Assembly: GCF_004010195.1 (NCBI RefSeq) | Contig: NC_057749.1 | Location: 8,845,969 to 8,901,734, forward strand | From: Chiloscyllium plagiosum | Taxonomy: Eukaryota | Direction: 5' to 3' | Length of the DNA stretch: 55,766 nucleotides | The notes under the pieces: generated by a model | Seen by the model: only the letters and a program-made list of their open reading frames with translations | Told to the model about the DNA's origin: nothing | Databases searched by the model: none | Position numbers and translations under genes: made by a program | Shown here: in pieces, positions 8,979 through 45,616 of the stretch | Position numbering within the stretch: the stretch's first letter is position 1 | Layout of the letters: each line of letters opens with the position of its first letter

Positions 8979-9627
8979 ACCCACTGTACTATGAGACCTC
9001 ATATTGCTCATTCTGAGTTACCACTGAGCATAAGGGTATGACAATGCGAGGATTATAAAACGGACAGTTACTCCTGGTTGGCTTAAGGGCTATTCAGAGA
9101 TGCATTGAGTGAGGTTTGAGGCTGAAGAGCCAGCTCCCTTGCCTATTGCTCATGTCTGGGGGAATGGGAAAGAGGTGAAGACGGAAGACAGAAAGCGTAA
9201 AACAGTAACCCGTGATTGGTTCAGAGAAAAACCACAAAATTGTCATGGCATTTGAAACAGGTGTTGAAAGTCGACCTTGCCTTATTTCCTGAGGAGAATG
9301 TGATCCTGGCTGTGTGACAGCCATTACTGGCTGGAACGAGAGCTCAGATTATGCTGGTGACCATCCTTTCATCTCCACCTACAATTTTCCCAAGTATTTG
9401 GTTATCGGTAACTCTTCACCCTTCCCTGCCATCCCCTAACCCTACTTCCTCACAGTTCAATTATTAAGTGCCACTCACTGGGCACCAAGACTCTGGCAGT
9501 GAGGGCATGACACATGACTGAGTAGCATCAATCTTTAACTATCTGTTATACTCATGCAATGTCCAAAAGGTCACTCTGTCCCATAATCATTCTTGGATTC
9601 ACATCAAGCCCCACCTCGGTCAGATCA

Positions 9628-10260
9628 AACATTTGGTATGCTTTCTTTTATCAATCAGAATATTAAGTACAGGAGTTGGGAGGTCATGGTGTGGCTGTAC
9701 AGGACATTGGTTAGGCCACTGTTTGAATATTGTGTGCAATTCTGGTCCCCTTCCTATCAGAAAGATGTTGTGAAACTTGAAAGGGTTCAGAAAAGATTTA
9801 CAAGGATGTTGCTAGGGTTGGAGGATTTGAGCTATAGGGAGAGGCTGAACAGGCTGGGGCTGTTTTCCCTGGAGCGTCGGAGACTGAGGGGTGACCTTTA
9901 TAGTGGTTTACAAAATTATGAGGGCTAGGATAACAGACAAAGTCTTTTCCCTGGGGTCGGGGAGTCCAGAACTAGAGGGTATAGGTTTAGGGTGAGAGGG
10001 GAAAGATATAAAAGAGACCTAAGGGGCAACTTTTTCACACAGAGGATGGTACGTGTATGGAATGAGCTGCCAGAGGAAGTGGTGGAGGCTGGTATAATTG
10101 CAACATTTAAGAGGCATTTGGATGGGTATGTGAATAGTAAGGGTTTGGAGGGGTAGGGGCCGGGTGCTGGCAGGTGGGACTAGATTGGGTTGGGATATCT
10201 GGTCAGCATGGACAGGTTGGACAGCAGGGTCTGTTTCCATGCTGTACATCTCTATGACTC
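9628..10260 (+). mobile_element. HER1/CR1 LINE 3' fragment
   Basis: Encodes YRSWEVMVWLYRTLVRPLFEYCVQFWSP...RLGLFSLERRRLRGDL (CR1 RT C-terminus); tail tctatgactc. Confidence 0.9.
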
Positions 10261-10554: not shown

Positions 10555-10627
10555 CTCTACGAACTGGACAGTGACCCCAAACGCAAGGAGTTCCTGGATG
10601 ATCTGTTTGTTTTCATGCAGAAGAGAG
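10555..10627 (+). CDS. ARID3B: ARID3B coding exon (73 nt, phase 0-1), start of the extended ARID DNA-binding domain, LYELDSDPKRKEFLDDLFVFMQKR-G
   Basis: Pyrimidine tract and gacAG acceptor at 10554; consensus donor G|GTGAGT at 10628. The peptide is the ARID3/dead-ringer signature; FVFMQKRG (rather than FSFMQKRG) plus the upstream exon point to ARID3B. Confidence 0.96.
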
Positions 10628-10889
10628 GTGAGTCTGAGCTTTGCTCCCGCCCCCCAGAAACACTGATCTTCTTGTTGTCCACCTTCATTACTAATCGCTT
10701 CTCCTACCTCGTTTCGGAAAGGCTCCTCAAACTACCCTGGGCCTTGCTGACCGCTCAACTAAATCCCAACTACACTTTGTTTTCATTCTGCATACTCTCC
10801 CCCAACCCAGATTTAAGTGGGTCTTGGATTCTACAGTCTACTCAGCATTCACAGTCTACTGAAGTGGGTGGGATTGGGATGGTATAGTA

Positions 10890-11017
10890 GGTGAAAGTGA
10901 GGACTGCAGATGCTGGAGATCAGAGTTGAAAAGTGTGGCACTGGAAAAGCACAGCAGGTCAGGCAGAGAGTCGACATTTCAACCGTGAGCTCTTCATCAG
11001 GAATGAGGATTCCTGAC
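10890..11017. mobile_element. Penelope-like element terminal fragment
   Basis: aaagtgaggactgcagatgctggagatcagag...cttcatcaggaatgagg, the same family as 21974-22164. Confidence 0.7.
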
Positions 11018-18147: not shown

Positions 18148-18752
18148 GGTCATAGAGATGCACACCACAGAAATAGACCCAACAGTGCAACTCATCAACG
18201 CCGACCAGGTATCCGAAATTAATCCAGTCCCATTTGCTGGCATTTGGCCCATATCCCTCTCATCCCTTCCTGTTCATGTACAAATCCAGATGCCTTTCAA
18301 ATGTTGTAATTGTACCCACCTCCACCATTTCCTCACTCCATTCACACACCACCCTCTGCATGAAAAGGTTGCCCCATTAAAGGTACCTTTTAAGTCACTC
18401 CTATCTCACCCATGCCCTCTGGCTTTGGGTTCCTGTACCCTGGGGAAAAGACCTTGGCTATTCACCCTGTCCTTACCCCTCATGATTTTATAAACCTCTA
18501 GAAGGTCACCCCTCAGCTTCTGACCCTCCAGGGAGAATAGCCACAGCTGATCCAGCCTCTCCCTCTATCTTGAACACTCCAACTGTTGCAACATCCTTGT
18601 AAATGTTTTCTGAACTCTTTCAAGTTTCACAATATCCTTCCTATAGCAGGGAGACCAGAATTGAACACAGTTTTCCAAAAGTGGCCTAACCAACATCTTG
18701 TATAGCCGCAACGTGACCTCCCAACTCCTATACTCAATGCAGTGACCAATAC
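18148..18752 (-). mobile_element. HER1/CR1 LINE 3' fragment
   Basis: Minus strand IEYRSWEVTLRLYKMLVRPLLENCVQFWSP. Confidence 0.85.
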
Positions 18753-19101
18753 AGGCCCCATGCTTTGCTCCTAAGAGCCTCCCGTTTGCCATTTCAATGA
18801 GCAATGTGACTCGGGACATGAACACCCAGGTGGTTTCCTACTGCCTTTTTGATGAGGAAACTCGGGGCCTCATCCTGATGGGTCTTGTGCCCAGAAGCTG
18901 CCATTGTCCCTGGAGATTTGAGCTCTTCCATTGTCATGACTGACTGTTCACTGGAACTCATAGGCCAGGGCTGGGACCCTGACCCTTGCCTGGTTAGACT
19001 TGCAAAATGACTGAACCGCCCAACACAGGTCTCAAATAACCACACTACCCCCGCGTACACTTAGGTCCCTCAATTAGATCATCCTGCAGCCTCCTCTGTT
19101 T

Positions 19102-21640: not shown

Positions 21641-21973
21641 TAACAATGTTTGTGAAACCATAGTTGATTGTCATGAAAACTTATCTGTTTCACTAATGTC
21701 CTGTAGGTAAGGAAACTGTCATCCTTAACTGGTCTGACCTACATCTGACTCCAGACCCACAGCAATGGCCTGTATCCCTTGAGTGAATAAATAATAAAAA
21801 GTGTTATATTATGAAGAGTTGTTGGTTGTGCCCTGCTCCTTTCTGCTGTCTTTGGCACATTTAAAGTCAACCCATCATTGAGTTTTATTTTATTTACTCA
21901 TTTATGGCATGTGGGTGTTCTTGGATGGATCTGCCCTTACTGCTAATCCTTAATTGCCCTGGGCTAGATCAGG

Positions 21974-22164
21974 GCTGAAAATGTGTTGCTGGAAAAGCGC
22001 AGCAGGTCAGGCAGCATCCAAGGAACAGGAGAATCGACGTTTCGGGCATAAGCCCTTCTTCAGGAACCTCATTCCTGAAGAAGGGCTTATGCCCGAAACG
22101 TCGATTCTCCTGTTCCTTGGATGCTGCCTGACCTGCTGCGCTTTTCCAGCAACACATTTTCAGC
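21974..22164. mobile_element. Young palindromic Penelope-like insertion (perfect 93-bp inverted arms, 5-nt loop)
   Basis: Arms 21974-22066 and 22072-22164 are exact reverse complements; 15-bp direct repeat ctgggctagatcagg at 21959-21973 and 22166-22180. Confidence 0.88.
22071..22106 (+). ncRNA. Minimal type-I hammerhead ribozyme motif (PLE-type); mirror copy on the - strand in the left arm
   Basis: CTGAAGA (22075-22081), extra A, stem II GGGC-ttat-GCCC, GAAA, CGTC; short imperfect stem I attc/gatt. Confidence 0.7.
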
Positions 22165-22308
22165 TCTGGGCTAGATCAGGCCAACACTCTTCCTGAATTT
22201 GGAACAAAGCTATCTTAATGTAACATGGAATCTTTAGAGAACCCAGCCCCCACCACCTCTGCCCAGTAACAGTAATAGTCCTCAGGATTAATGTAACTAC
22301 TCCTGTTG

Positions 22309-22430
22309 CATTCCTGATGAAGAGTTTATGCTCAAAATGTTGACTTTCCTGCTCCTGTGATGCTGCCTGACCTGCTGTGCTTTTCCAGCACCACCCTTTT
22401 TGATTCTGATCTCCAGTCCTCACTCTCTCC
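22309..22430. mobile_element. Penelope-like element terminal fragment with a decayed hammerhead
   Basis: cattcctgatgaagagtttatgctcaaaatgttg...gtcctcact. Confidence 0.65.
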
Positions 22431-23655: not shown

Positions 23656-23884
23656 AGGGTGAAAAGGTGTGGTGCTGGAAAAGCACAGCAGGTCAGACAG
23701 CATCCAAGTAGCAGGAGAATTGCTGTTTCGGGCATAAGCCCTTCATCAGGAATGTCCTGAAGAAGGGCTCATGCCTGAAATGTTGGCTTTCCTGCTCCTC
23801 AGATGCTGCCTGACCTGTGTTTTTCCAGCACCGCGCTTTTTGACTCAGACTCTCCAGCATCTGCAGTCCTCACTTTTTCCATTT
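23656..23884. mobile_element. Older palindromic Penelope-like insertion with decayed hammerhead motifs
   Basis: Imperfect inverted arms around cttcatcaggaatgtcctgaagaag; interrupts a SINE, with taccat/taccac flanks. Confidence 0.7.
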
Positions 23885-25505: not shown

Positions 25506-26196
25506 TAGAGACATAGAGTCAGAGTCATAGAGATGTACAGCACGGCCACAGATCCTTCAGTCCAACTTGTCCATACCGACCAGATATTCTAACCTAATCT
25601 AGTCCCATTTGCCAGCATTTGGCCCATATCCCTCTAAACTCTTCCTAATCATATACCCATCCAGGTGCCTTTTAAATGTTGTAATTGTACCAGCCTCCAC
25701 CACTTACTCTGGCAGCTCATTCCATACACACACCACCCTCTGTGAAAAAGTTGGCCCTTTTAAATCTTTCCCCTCTCACCCTAAACCAATGCTCTCTAGT
25801 TCTGGACTCCCCCACCCCAGGGAAAAGACCTTGTCTATTTACCCCATCCATGCCCCTCATGATTTCAGTCTCTCCCTTTAGCTCATACCCTCCAACTCTG
25901 GCAACATCCTTGTAAATCTTTTCTGAATCCTTTCAAGTTTCACAACATCCTTTTGATAGAAGGGAGACCAGAATTGCACGCAGTATTCCAAAAGTGGCCT
26001 AACCAATGTTCTGTACAGCCGCAACATGACCTCCCAACTCCTGTACTCAATACTCCGACCAATAAAGAAAATTATACCAAATGCCTTCTTCACTATCCTA
26101 TCTTCCTGAGACTCCACTTTCAAGGAGCTGTGAACCTGCACTCCAAGGTCTCTTTGTTCAGCAACACTCCCCAGAACCTTATCATTAAGCGTATAG
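25506..26196 (-). mobile_element. HER1/CR1 LINE 3' fragment
   Basis: Minus ORF 25878-26225 QRDLGVQVHSSLK...YRTLVRPLLEYCVQFWSP. Confidence 0.9.
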
Positions 26197-26216
26197 ATTT
26201 CTATCCAAATAATTTG

Positions 26217-26537
26217 GAGTGGCACGGTGGCTCAGTGGTTAGCACAACTGCCTCACAGCACCAGGAACCCGGGTTCAATTCCTGCCTTGGGCAACTGTCT
26301 GTGTGGAGTTTGCACATTCTCCCCGTGTTTGCGTGGGTTTCCTCTGGGTGCTCCGGTTTCCTCCCACAGTCCAAAGATATGCAGGTTAGGTGAGTTGGCC
26401 ATGCTAAATTGCCTGTAGTGTTAGGTGGATTAGTCAGAGGGAAATGTAGGGGAATGGGTATGGGTGGGTTGTTCTTCAGAGGGTCGGTGTTGGACTTGTT
26501 GGGCCAAAGGGCTTGTTTCCACACTGTAGGGAATCTA
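26217..26537 (+). mobile_element. HE1-like SINE
   Basis: Well-preserved full-length copy. Confidence 0.88.
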
Positions 26538-32454: not shown

Positions 32455-33170
32455 TGATTTATTTGATTTGATTTATTACTGTCACATGTACCGAGGTACA
32501 GTGAAGAGTTTTGTTCTGTGTGCAGTACAGACAGATCATACCATACAAAGTACATTTGGGTAATAGAACAGAGAGAGGAATACAATGTTATGGCTGCAGA
32601 GAAGGTGGACAGAGAGCAAGACCAACATTTAAATGTAAAATTTGAGAGGTCTGTTCAGAAGTCTGATAACAGTGGGGAGGAAGCTATTCTTGAACCTGTT
32701 GGTGGGCAGAAGATATTGGAAGAGATTATAACCGGGGTGGGATGGGTCTTTGAAGATGTTGCATCCAAGGAGCAGGAGAATCGACGTTTCGGGCATGAGC
32801 CCTTCTTCATGCCCGAAACGTCGATTCTCCTGCTCCTTGGATGCTGCCTGACCTGCTGCGCTTTTCCAGCAACACATTTTCAGCTCTGATCTCCAACATC
32901 TGCAGTCCTCACTTTCTCCTCTTTGAAAATGTTGGCTGCCTTCCTGAGGCAGGGAGAAGTGTAGATGGATAGAAGGTTGGCTTGTATGATGGACTGGGCT
33001 GTGTTCACAACTCTGTTATGGTCCTGGGCAGAGCAGTTGCCATCCCAAGCTGTGATGTATCCAGATAGACTGCTTTCTATGGTGCATCTGTAAAAGTTGG
33101 TAATAATCTCCACAAATATGCTGAATTCCCTTAGCCTCCTGAGGAAGTAGAAACATTGATGAGTTAAGAG
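32455..33170 (-). mobile_element. Rex1/Babar-type LINE 3' remnant interrupted by a Penelope-like insert
   Basis: Minus strand YFLRRLREF...NFYRCTIESSLSGYITAWDGNCSAQD...NRFKNSFLPTVIRLLN. Confidence 0.8.
32762..32919. mobile_element. Young asymmetric palindromic Penelope-like insertion
   Basis: Short left arm inverted against a longer right arm; 15-bp TSD tctttgaa(g/a)atgttg at 32747-32761 and 32920-32934. Confidence 0.8.
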
Positions 33171-33530
33171 CTGAGTTACTTGCTGCAAAATTCCTTGCCT
33201 CAGACATGTTGTAGCAGCAGCATTCATTTGGTTAGTCCAGTGCAGTTTCTGATCAGTGGTAACCCCCCAGGATATTGACAGTGAGCAATTCAGCTGTCGG
33301 AATGCTGTTGAGTATCAAGGGTCGATGGTTAGATTTTCTCTTGTTGGTGATGACCATTGTGTGTGGTGTGAATGTTACTTGTGAAGGAGGGAAGCTGAAG
33401 GTGGTTGAGCCGGGATCATTCCCCCCCCGAGGAAATGTCCTGGAGCTGAAATGACTGACCTCCAATGACCAGAACCACCTTCTGCCAAACACTGCCGTCC
33501 ATATAAAGTATCCTCAGCCTCATTATAGGC

Positions 33531-33626
33531 AGAGGCTCCTCGTCCGGAGGCTTACTGAAGATGTTACCTAGTATGGTGACGAAACGTCTGAAAATGAACC
33601 TTCCAGCTCAGCGAGCAAACCTCCAT
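33531..33626 (+). mobile_element. 96-bp retroposed insert (probable PLE terminus) bounded by a perfect 13-bp TSD
   Basis: cctcattataggc at 33518-33530 and 33627-33639; contains an intact hammerhead core. Confidence 0.8.
33552..33591 (+). ncRNA. Minimal type-I hammerhead ribozyme motif
   Basis: TTA-CTGAAGA-T-GTTACC(tagtat)GGTGAC-GAAA-CGTC-TGA: conserved core, 6-bp stem II with one G-U pair, 3-bp stem I, predicted cleavage after C33588. Confidence 0.78.
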
Positions 33627-34507
33627 CCTCATTATAGGCCTTCAGCTACTTTCAGAGCAATTCCCAATGGATTTTCATCACAACCTATGTGGAGTTTGTG
33701 GATAAAGAAATAAGAGTAATTAGTGTGACTTTACCCTGTTGCATTAACCACAAAAGATATTTAACATCCGCATTTACCGCAAACTCAACTCAGATATCCT
33801 AAAACATTTCTAGCTCTTGCCTGTATCTTGCATCACAACCTCAGAATCCTCACTCCAAACAGTGTTCATCACCACATCAGGTGGTGATCCAGTGAAATAG
33901 ACCAGGAATCTACCCAATTTCTGTCACACTCAACTTGATAGCAGTGAAAGTTGTCAGTTCAGTACTCTGTGGGAAAGACAGCACTTTGTTCGTCGTTGAT
34001 ATTTTTCCTAATTGACCTTTCCAGAGATTTTATTATACACTTCTGGAGTAGGTGGGAGATGAACGGGCCCTACCTGGTTTAGAAGTAGGGACAATGGTTG
34101 TGTGTCACAAGAGCTCTCTCCTTGCTCATTCTCCAGTTGTGCCCTGATATTCATCTAACATTGAGATTTTATCACAGAATTGTCTCTCGTCGAAGGAGCT
34201 GGAGTGAGTCAATAATGACATACATTTATATAGAGTCATTAATAGGATGGTCTTAAAGTGATTCGCTGGGACATTGTCAGCAGGTATTAGGATGGTGAGC
34301 TAAAACCTATTCGATCAGGTGGGTTTTTAAGAAATATTTTAGAAAGAGAAGAGAGGGGTCAAAGGGTTGTGATTCTCACAAATACCAGGGTGCAGGGCCA
34401 CAGTTACTGAAAACATGGCCACCAACGGTGGCATGATTAAAATGGGGTGTGTGTGGAGAAACACTCCCAAGAACTCAGAATGGTGTGTCACTGGAGGAGA
34501 TAATGGG

Positions 34508-34903
34508 GTGTGTGTTTGTGTGTGCATATACATGTGTCTGTGTGTACGTGTGTGAGTACACGTGTCTGTGTGTACGCGTGTGCATATACATGTGTATGTG
34601 TGTACACATGTTTGTGTGTACGTGTGTGTATACATGTGTCTGTGTGTATGTGTGTGTACATGTGTCTGTGTGTACGCATGTGTACACATGTCTGTGTGTA
34701 CGTGTGTGTATACATGTGTCTGTGTACATGTGTCTGTGTGTACATGTGTGCGTATACATGTGTCTGTGTGTATGTGTGTACGTGTGTGTACGTATACACG
34801 TGTCTGTGTGTACATGTGTGTGCGCCTGTGTTTGTGTGTGTATACACGTGTGTTTGTGCCTGTGTATACATGTGTGTGCGTATACATGTGTCTGTGTGTA
34901 CAC
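34508..34903. repeat. Compound (TG/TA/CA/CG) alternating purine-pyrimidine repeat, ~400 bp
   Basis: Recurring tgtgtatacatgtgtctgtgtgtac units. Confidence 0.92.
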
Positions 34904-40050: not shown

Positions 40051-40269
40051 GTTAGAGACAAGAAGGCTGCAGATGCTGGAATCCAATGTAGACAAACAGG
40101 AGGCTGGAGGAACACAGCAAGCCAGGCAGCATCAGGAGGTGGAGAAGTCGACGTTTCAGGTATAACCCTTCTTCAGGTCCTGAAGAAGGATTATACCTGA
40201 AATGTCGACTTCTCCACCTCCTGATGCTGCCTGGCCTGCTGTGTCCCTTGAGCCACCTGCCTGTCCACT
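40051..40269. mobile_element. Palindromic Penelope-like insertion with hammerhead-like cores
   Basis: Inverted arms centred on 40178 (cttcttcagg-t-cctgaagaag); 11-bp TSD ttcactttaaa at 40040-40050 and 40270-40280. Confidence 0.78.
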
Positions 40270-40659: not shown

Positions 40660-41185
40660 ATTGGTTAGGCCACCTATGGAATATTGCATGCAATTGTGGT
40701 CCCCTTTCTATCGGAAACTTGAAAGGGTTCAGAAAAGATTTCCAAAGATGTTGCCAGGGTTGGAGGATTTGAGCTACAGGGAGAGTTTGAATAGGCTGGG
40801 GCTGAGGGGGTGACCTTGTAGAGGTTCATAAAATCATGAGGGGCATGGATTGGATAAATAGGCAAAGTCTTTTCTCTGGGGTGGGGGAGTCCAGAACTAG
40901 AGGGCACAGGTTTAAGGTGAGAGGGGAAAGATATAAAAGAGACCTAAGGGGCAACGTTTTCGTGCAGAGGGTGGTACATGTATGGAATGAGCTGCCAGAG
41001 GATGTGGTGGAGGCTGCAACATTTAAAAGGCATTTGGATGAGTATATGAATAGGAAGGGTTTGGAGGGATATGGGCCGGGTGCTGTCAGGTGGGACTAGA
41101 TTAGGTAGGGATATCTGGTCGGCATGGACGAGTTGGACTGAAGGGTCTGTTTCTGTGCTGTACATCTCTATGACCCTATGACTCT
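40660..41185 (+). mobile_element. HER1/CR1 LINE 3' fragment
   Basis: Encodes MRGMDWINRQSLF...RTRGHRFKVRGERYKRDLRGN...WNELPE. Confidence 0.9.
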
Positions 41186-43119: not shown

Positions 43120-43240
43120 GGGCTCAGTGGGTTCCACACTCACCTCTGAATCACAAGGTGCAGATCCCAGGCTGGAGCTTGAGCCCAAAAATCAAAGCTG
43201 ACGCCCGAGTGTATGGTTAAGGGAGCAGCATACTTCGAGA
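43120..43240 (+). mobile_element. 5' part of a SacSINE-like (Deu-domain) SINE leading into the minisatellite
   Basis: gctcagtgg...cacctctgaatcacaagg...cttgagcccaaaaatcaaagctgac resembles the remembered head of shark Deu-SINEs. Confidence 0.55.
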
Positions 43241-45616
43241 GGGTCCGTACTAAGGAGATACTGCACTGTTGGAGGGTCAGTACTGAGGGAGTGCTGCACT
43301 GTGGGAGGGTCAGTACTGAGAGGGTGCTGCACTGTGGGAGGGTCAGTACTGAGCGAGCTCTGCACTGTGGGAGGATCAGTACTGAGGGAGCTCTGCACTG
43401 TGTGAGAGTCAGTACTGAGGGAGTGCTGCACTGTGCGAGGGTCAGTACTGAGGGAGCTCTGCACTGTGGGAGGGTCAGTACTGAGGGAGCACTGCACTTT
43501 GGGAGGGTTAGTACTGAGGTAGTGTTGCACTGTTGGAGGGTCGGTACTGAGGGAGCTCTGCACTGCGGGAGGGTCATTACTGAGGGAGCTCTGCACTGTG
43601 GGAGGGTCAGTACTGAGGGAGCACTGCACTGTGGGAGGGTCAGTACTGAGGGAGCACTGCACTGTGGGAGGTCAGTACTGAGGGAGCTCTGCACTGTTGG
43701 AGGGTCAGTACTGAGGGAGCTCTGCACTATGGGAGGGTCAGTACTGAGGGTGCTCTGCACTGTGGGAGGGTCAGTACTGAGGGAGCACTGCACTGTGGGA
43801 GGGTCAGTACTGAGGGAGCACTGCAATGTTGGAGGGTCAGTACTGAGGGAGCTCTGCACTGTGGGAGGGTCAGTACTGAGGGAGCTCTGCACTGTTGGAG
43901 GGTCAGTACTGAGGGAGCTCTGCGTTGCAGGAGGGTCATTACTGAGGGAGCACTGCACTGTTGGAGGGTCATTACTGGGGGAGTGTTGCATTGTTGGAGG
44001 GTCATTACTGAGGGGGCTCTCCACTGGTTGGAGGGTCAGTACTGAGGGAGCTCTGCACTGTGGGAGGGTCAGTACTGAGGGAGCTCTGCACTGTTGGGAG
44101 GGTCATTACTGAGGGAGCACTCACTGTGGGAGTGTCAGTACTGAGGGAGCACTGCACTGTTGGAGGGTCATTATTCAGAGAGTTCTGCACTGTGGGAGGG
44201 TCAATACTGAGGGAGTGTTGCACTGTTGGAGGGTCATTACTGAGGGAGCTCTGCATTGTGGGAGGGTCAGTACTGAGAGAGCTCTGCACTTTGGGAGGGG
44301 AAGTACTGAGGGAGTGTTGCACTGTGGGAGGGACATTACTGAGGGAGCTCTGCACTGTGGGAGAGTCAGTACTGAGGGAGTGTTGCACTGTTGGAGGGTC
44401 AGTATGGAGGGAGCGCCGCACTGTCGGAGGGTCAGTACTGAGGGAGTGTTGCATTGTCGGAGGGTCAGTACTGAGGGAGTGCTGCACTGTGGGAGGGTCA
44501 GTACTGAGGGAGCACTGCACTGTGGGAGGGTCAGTACAGTGGGAGTACTGCACTGTTGGAGAGTCATTACTGAGGGAGTGCTGCACTGTGGGAGGGTCAT
44601 TACTGAAGAGGCACTCCAATGTGGGAGGGTCAGTACTGAGGGAGAGATGCACTGTTGGAGGGTCAGTACTGAGGGTGTGTTGCACTGTGGGAGGGTCAGT
44701 ACTGAGGGAGTGCTGCACTGTTGGAGGGTCATTACTGAGGGGGCGCTCCACTGTGGGAGGGTCAGTACTGAAGGAGTGTTGCACTGTTGGAGGGTCGGTA
44801 CTGTGGGAGTGTCTTTACTGAGGGAGCGCTGCACTGTTGGAGGGTCATTACTGGGGGAGTGTTGCATTGTTGGAGGCTCATTACTGAGGGGTCTCTCCAC
44901 TGTGGGAGGGTCATTACTGAGGGAGCGCTGCACTGTTGGAGGGTCATTACTGAGGGGGCGTTGCATTGTTGGAGGGTCATTACTGAGGGGGCTCTCCACT
45001 GTGGGAGGGTCATTACTGAGGGAGCGGTGCACTGTTGGGGGGTCATTACTGAGGGAGCGCTGCACTGTTGGAGGGTCATTACTGAGGGGGCGCTCCACTG
45101 TAGGAGGGTCATTACTGAGGGAGTGTTGCACTGTTGGAGGGTCATTACTGAGGGGGCTCTCCACTGTAGGAGGGTCAGTACTGAAAGAGTGTTGTACTGT
45201 TGGAGGGTCAGTACTGAGGGAGTGCTGCACTGTGGGAGGGTCAGTACTGAGGGAGTGTTGCACTGTTGGAGGGTTATTACTGAGGGATTGCTGCACTGTG
45301 GGAGGGTCAGTACTGAGGGAGTGCTGCTCATTGGGAGGGTCAGTATTGAGGGACCGCTGCACTGTGGGAGGGTCAGTACTGAGGGAGAGATACACTGTGG
45401 CAGGGTCAGTACTGAGGGAGAGATCCACTGTGGGAGGGTCAGTATTGAGGGAGTGCTGCACTGTGGGAGGGTCAATGCTGAGGGAGTGCTGCACTGTCAG
45501 AGATTCAGTGCTGAGGGAGTGCCACACTGTTTGAGGGTCAGTGCTGAGGGAACACTGCACTGTCGGAGGGTCAGTACTGAGGGAGTGCCGCATTGTTGGA
45601 GGGTTAGTGCTGAAGG
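43238..45616. repeat. 33-bp minisatellite, ~70 units, consensus GGGAGGGTCAGTACTGAGGGAGTGCTGCACTGT
   Basis: Directly visible tandem array; 11-aa periodicity in all overlapping ORFs. Confidence 0.97.

Follow-up and report, generated by a model that had tools for sequence, protein, structure and literature searches.

The 96-bp insertion at positions 33531-33626 of the window, as the whole 55.8-kb stretch of Chiloscyllium plagiosum DNA analysed here is called, is very probably a dead-on-arrival copy of a Penelope-like element (PLE), severely 5'-truncated and tail-less, in which a minimal hammerhead motif has travelled as a hitch-hiking part of the element RNA, as opposed to having been added to the host gene. 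The insertion belongs to a repeat family whose architecture and copy numbers were observed directly, as were the position and the strand of this copy, in sense orientation within an intron of an ARID3-family gene. The boundaries of the insertion, its hammerhead motif, the related copies in the genome, the age of the insertion and its host gene are described below, and the other explanations that were considered are weighed against this reading.

Boundaries of the insertion

The insertion is flanked by a perfect 13-nt direct repeat, cctcattataggc, at 33518-33530 and 33627-33639 (109 nt from start to start), and the perfect 13-bp repeat around a 96-bp insert reported in the preliminary description is thereby confirmed. 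A repeat finder extended the two copies to 33515 and 33624, giving a direct repeat of 16 nt with one mismatch. The two 13-nt copies are regarded as the upstream and the downstream copy of the target-site duplication (TSD), and the first two bases of the downstream copy are ambiguous with the end of the element. Members of the family end in ...CATCC(A), and since the last two element bases overlap the repeat, the true duplication is of 11-13 bp, i.e. 13 bp as it stands in the window copy or 11 bp if the terminal CC is assigned to the element.

Other copies in the genome match the insert from its position 8-10 only. The first 8-9 nt (33531-33539, + strand, AGAGGCTCC) are not family sequence and are not collinear with it, and they constitute a filler at the 5' junction. 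Bases 2-8 of this filler (GAGGCTC) repeat what the family consensus has 16 nt downstream in the helix-I strand, and the filler is probably a short re-copy made at the end of reverse transcription. The truncated, tail-less PLE 3' end itself occupies 33540-33628 on the + strand, matching 85 of 87 consensus positions and keeping all five CpGs. The hammerhead domain takes up approximately 33546-33604 and the rest of the insert, from the ATG at 33594, is the start of the element ORF, represented by its first 11 codons (MNLPAQRANLH) and two further bases (33594-33628, + strand), ending where the tail-less copies of the family end.

Hammerhead motif

All the components named in the preliminary description, namely CTGAAGA, one extra base, a 6-bp stem II, GAAA and CGTC, are present on the + strand, with the CTGAAGA and GAAA boxes in type-I order and with TC at 33587-33588 as the U-H cleavage dinucleotide. 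The 5' strand of helix I (33546-33554) consists of a distal GGAGG (33546-33550), a C and a proximal TTA (33552-33554). It is followed, over 33555-33562, by the catalytic box CTGAAGA (C3-A9, 33555-33561) and an unpaired T33562 between A9 and G10.1. Helix II (33563-33580) is formed by GTTACC (33563-33568) and GGTGAC (33575-33580) on either side of the loop TAGTAT, and its six pairs, five Watson-Crick and one U.G, are closed by G10.1-C11.1 (G33563-C33580). The next segment (33581-33588) carries GAAA (33581-33584), the ACGT palindrome (A15.1 C G U16.1, 33584-33587) and C17 (33588), with CGTC at 33585-33588, and the scissile bond is predicted after C33588. The 3' strand of helix I (33589-33604) is made up of TGA (33589-33591), 8 nt of internal loop and CTTCC (33600-33604). 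The 3-bp stem I described earlier was recovered as TTA paired with TGA, the middle pair being U.G, and this stem can be extended distally by pairing of GGAGG with CTTCC across an internal loop of 1 x 8 nt.

The putative ribozyme has all the sequence traits of PLE minimal hammerheads that are listed in the available part of PMC4209133. Its 34-nt core occurs once in the window and in 0 of 100 shuffles, and a minimal-hammerhead descriptor found 0 matches in 200 mononucleotide shuffles of the window, so that a chance origin of the motif is excluded. The Infernal search proposed in the preliminary description was negative for every Rfam hammerhead model: Hammerhead_1, _3, _II, HH9 and HH10 gave no match at the gathering score over the whole window and none at E <= 10 on segments of 361 nt or 77 nt. 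Weak rows for Rfam snoRNA, miRNA and riboswitch models were rejected as chance, their scores being far under the thresholds.

Thermodynamic folding, which here carries no information on activity, did not give the hammerhead fold as the predicted minimum (-10.0 kcal/mol when constrained against an MFE of -15.7, i.e. 5.7 kcal/mol costlier). The MFE structure of the monomer contains stem II without the hammerhead junction, the predicted homodimer (-34.2 against 2 x -15.7) leaves the ACGU palindrome unused, and the whole insert folds no better than its shuffles (z = -1.1).

Repeat family and its architecture

The genome-wide search for copies advocated in the preliminary description was productive. 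With the 96-nt insert as the query, 1,190 candidates were obtained in the 3.56-Gb genome, and the intact core with the stem II of the window copy gave 1,009 genomic matches (489+520, against 0+0 in the reversed control). Scoring was performed for the 40 best of the 1,190 candidates only, among which 45 matches were listed; the best of these are 94-97% identical to the insert over its positions 8/10-96, a range that is biased by this restriction to the best candidates. The terminal 87 nt are 94-97% alike between the best-scored copies, and the upstream ORF parts of the same copies are 83-87% alike. When the window copy was compared with 29 other loci, homology was in every case (29/29) limited to -88..+3 around the insert end, corresponding to the last ~87-89 nt. 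Among themselves, the other loci have as much as 981 bp more in common in the upstream direction, and the 5' end differs in each.

In the longer copies, the upstream sequence includes a GIY-YIG endonuclease domain (PF01541, E 2.2e-5, 25.1 bits against a cut-off of 22.6), before which reverse transcriptase (RT) motifs are found (SVDVTAL..., ...GTPMG(S/P)PISGF... and (R)YVDDTF / YMDGTF). The RVT_1 model matched copy fragments at E 3.1e-5, its two matches of 17.4 and 24.2 bits both being below the Pfam cut-off of 29.6. The order of RT, endonuclease and hammerhead was observed in three loci (L003, L014 and L034). A genome search with the RT segment yielded 4,188 candidates, and at RT loci the 3' hammerhead unit lies ~1.5 kb downstream of the RT segment. 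One locus (L078) has direct hammerhead units on both sides, 2.9 kb apart, and in three others (L079, L081 and L085) a 5' unit or its remnant runs straight into the element body. In L081, the ATG a few bases past the hammerhead starts a frame of at least 93 aa, which extends through the tail and into the body; the family ORF begins 6 nt past the hammerhead cut site. No uninterrupted full-length ORF was found among the copies examined. As reconstructed from these loci, the full-length units measure ~2.5-2.9 kb and comprise a pLTR with the minimal hammerhead, an ORF with RT and GIY-YIG domains, and a further pLTR with the hammerhead and the first ORF codons.

The preliminary description had proposed a retroposed PLE end with a minimal type-I hammerhead, practically no stem III and an ACGT palindrome, and this proposal is borne out by copies that run into the RT/GIY-YIG ORF. 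The retrozyme-like mini-element offered beside it is not supported, there being no tandem unit and the homologous copies continuing into the same ORF.

Ends of the copies

The ends were examined in 40 places taken in the order of the genome search and not picked by flank, which hold 41 intact-core copies. The majority (24/41) are tail-less and, as in the window copy, end in ...CATCC(A) 75-83 nt after the CTGA box; 16 are tailed, with an extra ~36-43 nt, and end 103-117 nt after the CTGA box, and one is interrupted by an inverted copy. Two classes of 3' end were also seen in the comparison of 30 loci, one at ...CATCC(A) and the other some 45-50 nt further on, and in 11 of these 30 loci an inverted head-to-head partner is present within 1.5 kb. 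In other very short copies the TSDs measure 8-10 bp, and the truncated 5' end is separated from the TSD by 4-24 nt of unrelated filler.

The 5' ends of six of the 30 copies, the window copy included, coincide within ~2 nt just upstream of helix I, which is more than simple random truncation predicts; the remaining 5' ends spread from -28 to beyond -300. The coincidence at the same base was not reproduced in the position-ordered sample (0/41), in which three copies begin within 4-8 nt of it.

Conservation and abundance of the motif

Compensatory changes in stem II, to which the preliminary description had looked for support, were found in the comparison of families, where stem II differs yet stays paired. 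In related families the same GAAACGTC is preceded by another stem II that is again paired, GGGC/GCCC in one of them and GUCACC/GGGGAC or GCCACC/GGGGGC (GYCACC/GGGGRC), a U-A <-> C-G exchange, in another. In the alignment of 42 copies (A2), stem II is uninformative because it is fixed by the search pattern. The helix I pair 2.3-1.3 in the same 42 copies is UA in 26, CG in nine, UG/GU in four and unpaired in three, a covariation that probably reflects one subfamily event and is therefore modest evidence. At the level of the family, the motif is kept beyond the neutral expectation. The copies differ from each other chiefly through CpG decay at GACGAAACGTC, which is what neutral dead copies would be expected to show; after insertion, the individual copies decay neutrally.

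A second hammerhead family, with the core CTGAnGA-A-GGGC-loop-GCCC-GAAACGTC, is represented by 88,354 intact cores in the genome against 0 in the control. It occurs at approximately eight sites in the 55.8-kb window, several of them in the intron that holds the insert. A 113-nt, 95% complementary palindrome at 21954-22184 is a head-to-head pair of this family with its own 15-bp TSD, and further inverted pairs are present at 23.7, 32.8 and 40.2 kb. The intron also contains, 11.5 kb upstream of the insert, one second-family hammerhead that is intact and in sense orientation and has the same ACGT palindrome. The Rfam models missed the second family also, and the inverted pair at 22 kb gave sub-threshold miRNA-hairpin matches only. 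Given the 1,009 and 88,354 intact cores, an intact hammerhead motif in an intron is routine in this genome. The significance that the preliminary description implied for a potentially self-cleaving RNA at this place does not survive these numbers, nor the occurrence of several such motifs in the same intron.

Host gene

The exon at 10555-10627 (+ strand, bordered by ag and gt) encodes LYELDSDPKRKEFLDDLFVFMQKR, with which the ARID domain of an ARID3-family gene begins, and the next exon, which encodes the rest of the ARID domain (TPVNRIPIMAKQVLDLY...), is situated at G000:C40:8931976-8932161 (+), approximately at window coordinate 86012. The intron between them starts at 10628 and is ~75 kb long. 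Since the exons on both sides are on the + strand, the insert is intronic and sense to the gene. In a search with the single exon at 10555-10627, this exon was 100% identical to proteins named 'ARID3A-like' and 'ARID3B-like', and the matching proteins of other sharks are named '3A-like' or '3B-like'; the two proteins from a contig with exactly the length of C40 bear the name '3A-like'. The earlier placement of the insert, in sense orientation in an ARID3B intron, therefore stands as to strand, intronic position and ARID3 family, and does not stand as to the paralogue 3B, identical matches being named both ways.

Age of the insertion

Contigs of four public runs were compared over 33150-34000. 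In the run with the same organism label (X2), the left junction is bridged with no difference. In a run under another species label (X15), the left junction is bridged by 142 nt (33436-33577) with 6 differences; these 142 nt take in the first 47 nt of the insert, and three of the 6 differences are listed in the flank. A second contig of the same run reaches 24 nt into the insert from its right-hand side. The unique flanks of the two labels differ by ~3.5-4%. As the insertion is present under the second label, it appears to be older than the divergence of the two labels. No insert-skipping joint, as expected from an empty site, was present among the joints listed in the four runs, two of which (X6 and X8) were without depth on the unique flanks. 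The recent insertion suggested in the preliminary description thus holds in a relative sense only: the window copy is well preserved, with 85 of 87 consensus positions and five CpGs, and it is bridged under another species label, so that it is not demonstrably recent.

Origin of the insertion

Under the reading preferred here, and with the in vitro work on the Anolis PLE as a model, the element protein would have nicked the intron. Reverse transcription would then have been primed at the first of a pair of internal start sites located just within the ORF, giving the 'tail-less' end ...CATCC, and only ~89 nt would have been copied back through the hammerhead, with the 8-nt filler added and a TSD of 11-13 bp left. 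We infer this mechanism of priming from the Anolis PLE. The isolated monomer in the pre-mRNA is most likely inactive and neutral, and published experiments likewise point to inactive isolated copies.

Some of the observations would also suit a mini-element, retrozyme- or SINE-like, in which the ~87-nt hammerhead unit itself transposes, for instance as a short transcript from the pLTR promoter that is copied to its 5' end by the PLE protein in trans. Six of the 30 copies, that of the window included, begin within ~2 nt of one point in unrelated flanks, the terminal 87 nt are more alike (94-97%) than the upstream ORF parts (83-87%), and a 2026 preprint, in the part available, derives animal retrozymes from PLE pLTRs. 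Such a mini-element is nevertheless improbable, as there is no tandem unit and a single copy in the 55.8-kb window, the other 5' ends range from -28 to beyond -300, the shared starting point did not recur in the position-ordered sample, and the 94-97% identity comes from the 40 best of 1,190 candidates and is hence biased. A constellation of short motifs brought together by chance inside an unrelated duplication, for which nothing but the negative Rfam searches speaks, has a negligible probability: none of the 100 and 200 shuffles matched, the 1,009 genomic matches face 0 in the reversed control and the homologous copies lead into the PLE ORF. This explanation was rejected on the family copies, the 1,009 core matches and the full-length loci with RT.

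An exapted intronic ribozyme that cleaves the ARID3 pre-mRNA, alone, with the PLE protein or paired with another hammerhead of the intron, and thereby modulates the gene, is less probable still than the mini-element. In its favour are the intact core in sense orientation to the gene, the retention of all five CpGs, the presence of the insertion under another species label and the second-family hammerhead, intact, sense and with its ACGT, 11.5 kb upstream in the same intron. Yet the motif is one among 1,009 and 88,354 intact cores in the genome, and the contig of the other species label, with its 6 differences over 142 nt, indicates no extra conservation. Further, the Rfam models of intronic hammerheads were unmatched. 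According to the available part of PMC4209133, self-cleavage in vitro could not be detected for a single PLE minimal hammerhead and was weak for dimeric and trimeric constructs. The Anolis PLE hammerhead required the element protein for cleavage, and its cut site was not the end of any RNA-seq read (PMC11167929). It is very unlikely that the sense minimal hammerhead of the window is competent in vivo, be it with the PLE protein or by ACGU pairing with the sense second-family hammerhead 11.5 kb upstream. If it were, the ARID3 pre-mRNA would be cut during bursts of PLE expression, as would thousands of others, given the ~89,000 intact motifs. The truncated PLE copy with its hitch-hiking hammerhead is preferred over all of these.

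Comparison with known hammerheads and elements

Conserved intronic hammerheads are known from amniotes (Rfam Hammerhead_HH9 / HH10); they possess a full helix III, are active as monomers and are conserved at single loci. The window motif resembles them in being a hammerhead that is sense in the intron of a host gene. It differs from them in being without helix III, in coming from a repeat of thousand copies and in leaving their models unmatched.

Animal non-LTR retrozymes have reportedly been described by Cervera and de la Pena in 2020. They share with the window copy a type-I hammerhead related to PLE pLTRs, as far as their available descriptions go. In a preprint of Li, Clavereau & Pollet (2026), which reports them from the only Chondrichthyes genome in its sample, they are often 'solo' monomers, many of them intronic. 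Retrozymes are, in the descriptions available, tandem ORF-less units expressed as circular RNAs, whereas the window copy is single and its family continues into the RT/GIY-YIG ORF.

Minimal hammerheads of PLEs are said to have been treated also by Lunse, Weinberg and Breaker in RNA Biol. In the available part of Cervera & de la Pena 2014 (PMC4209133), they are described as catalytic boxes without helix III, with an extra base between positions 9 and 10.1 and with a G10.1-C11.1 pair that closes an enlarged helix II; helix I is short, and 15.2-16.2 is palindromic, which permits a dimeric helix III. The window motif agrees with this description in its type-I order, CUGANGA, the unpaired base before a long helix II, GAAA, ACGU and the UC cleavage site. 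It agrees also in its location in a pLTR and in its scatter over the genome, mostly as single motifs from truncated elements together with nearby pairs on opposite strands. Compared with that part of the source, nothing is different in kind. The sequence family is specific to this cartilaginous-fish genome, and helix I, of 3 bp with a distal 5 bp across an internal loop, is unlike that of the PLE minimal hammerheads published there.

A close comparison for the manner of insertion is PAc, a Poseidon-type PLE of Anolis carolinensis (Frangieh et al. 2024, PMC11167929), in which 5' truncation shortens the product and both DNA strands can be cut and extended. In the same source, the optional tail of 30-40 bp in PLEs is ascribed to reverse transcription starting at either of two internal sites inside the ORF. 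As in PAc (PMC11167929), the hammerhead of the present family straddles the pLTR-ORF junction, the copies stop at either of two positions within the first part of the ORF and they are 5'-truncated; the inverted pairs found here fit the two-strand extension described for PAc. The two elements differ in the position of the ATG, which is conserved 6 nt after the cut site here and lies in stem II in PAc, with the cut 26 nt downstream, and in the position of the two 3' ends, which are ~35 and 75-80 nt into the ORF here and 111-118 nt into it in PAc (PMC11167929).

Implications

The insert is an already-known kind of repeat fragment; nothing suggests a role in the host gene, for which it is most likely neutral. 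As an individual insertion it matters little: truncated retrotransposon copies of this routine kind have been described since 2014. Since the Rfam models match neither of the two PLE hammerheads tested, despite the ~89,000 intact cores in the genome, searches based on descriptors or on the families themselves are needed for the masking and the study of such repeats. The genome, moreover, offers 5' junctions, tails and inverted pairs in large numbers, a natural data set that could be used to test the model of PLE priming with two start sites and two strands.

Repeats in the window

A second family of minimal hammerheads, with the core CTGAnGA-A-GGGC-loop-GCCC-GAAACGTC, is present in the window, and its main insertion form is the head-to-head inverted pair. 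The palindromic pair at 21954-22184 (113 nt, 95% complementary) is flanked by a target-site duplication of 15 bp, ctgggctagatcagg; further sites lie at 23660-23830, 32761-32885 and 40103-40241, and singles at 992-1070, 10924-11005 and 22309-22394. By pattern count, the intact core has 88,354 matches genome-wide as against 0 for the reversed control. The family gave no match to the Rfam hammerhead models, the Rfam search returning only sub-threshold matches to miRNA hairpins.

The window also holds LINE fragments (9587-9928, 18565-18837, 25878-26231 and 40806-41099) with the conserved C-terminal ORF region ...YRSWEVM..LYRTLVRPLLEYCVQFWSP.Y.KDVVKLERVQKRFTRML..., in which the intron is rich, and several copies of the Penelope-like element (PLE) adjoin such fragments, which are found at about 1600-2800 of the PLE loci L032, L033 and L035. 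Tandem repeats include a degenerate TG/CA-rich array (34508-34858, periods 44-80), which follows the insert at a distance of about 900 bp, and a G+C-rich minisatellite (43239-45604) of about 72 copies of a 33-bp unit with 83-86% matches. On each strand this minisatellite creates open frames that are long but spurious.

Ends and conservation of the PLE copies

The filler AGAGGCTCC at the 5' junction of the insert (33531-33539) contains GAGGCTC, the family consensus of the helix I strand, in which C occupies the position corresponding to 33553. The window copy itself carries T there. This suggests that the filler is a re-copied template segment and that the main copy changed from C to T afterwards.

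The 5' ends of six of the 30 family copies first sampled (loci L001, L002, L004, L012, L023 and L030) agree within about 2 nt, at a point immediately 5' of the outer helix I strand (window 33539/33540), and their flanks are unrelated. None of the 41 intact-core copies of the second sample ends at that same base; three end 4-8 nt from it. The coinciding ends may represent a truncation hot spot or the 5' end of a transcript.

Copies at L032-L035 are 94-97% alike over the terminal 87 nt, comprising the hammerhead and the ORF start, and only 83-87% alike in the reverse transcriptase and endonuclease regions. The higher terminal identity could merely arise from the selection of best-scoring matches, or it could reflect constraint on the hammerhead/reverse transcriptase-start module in the master copies.
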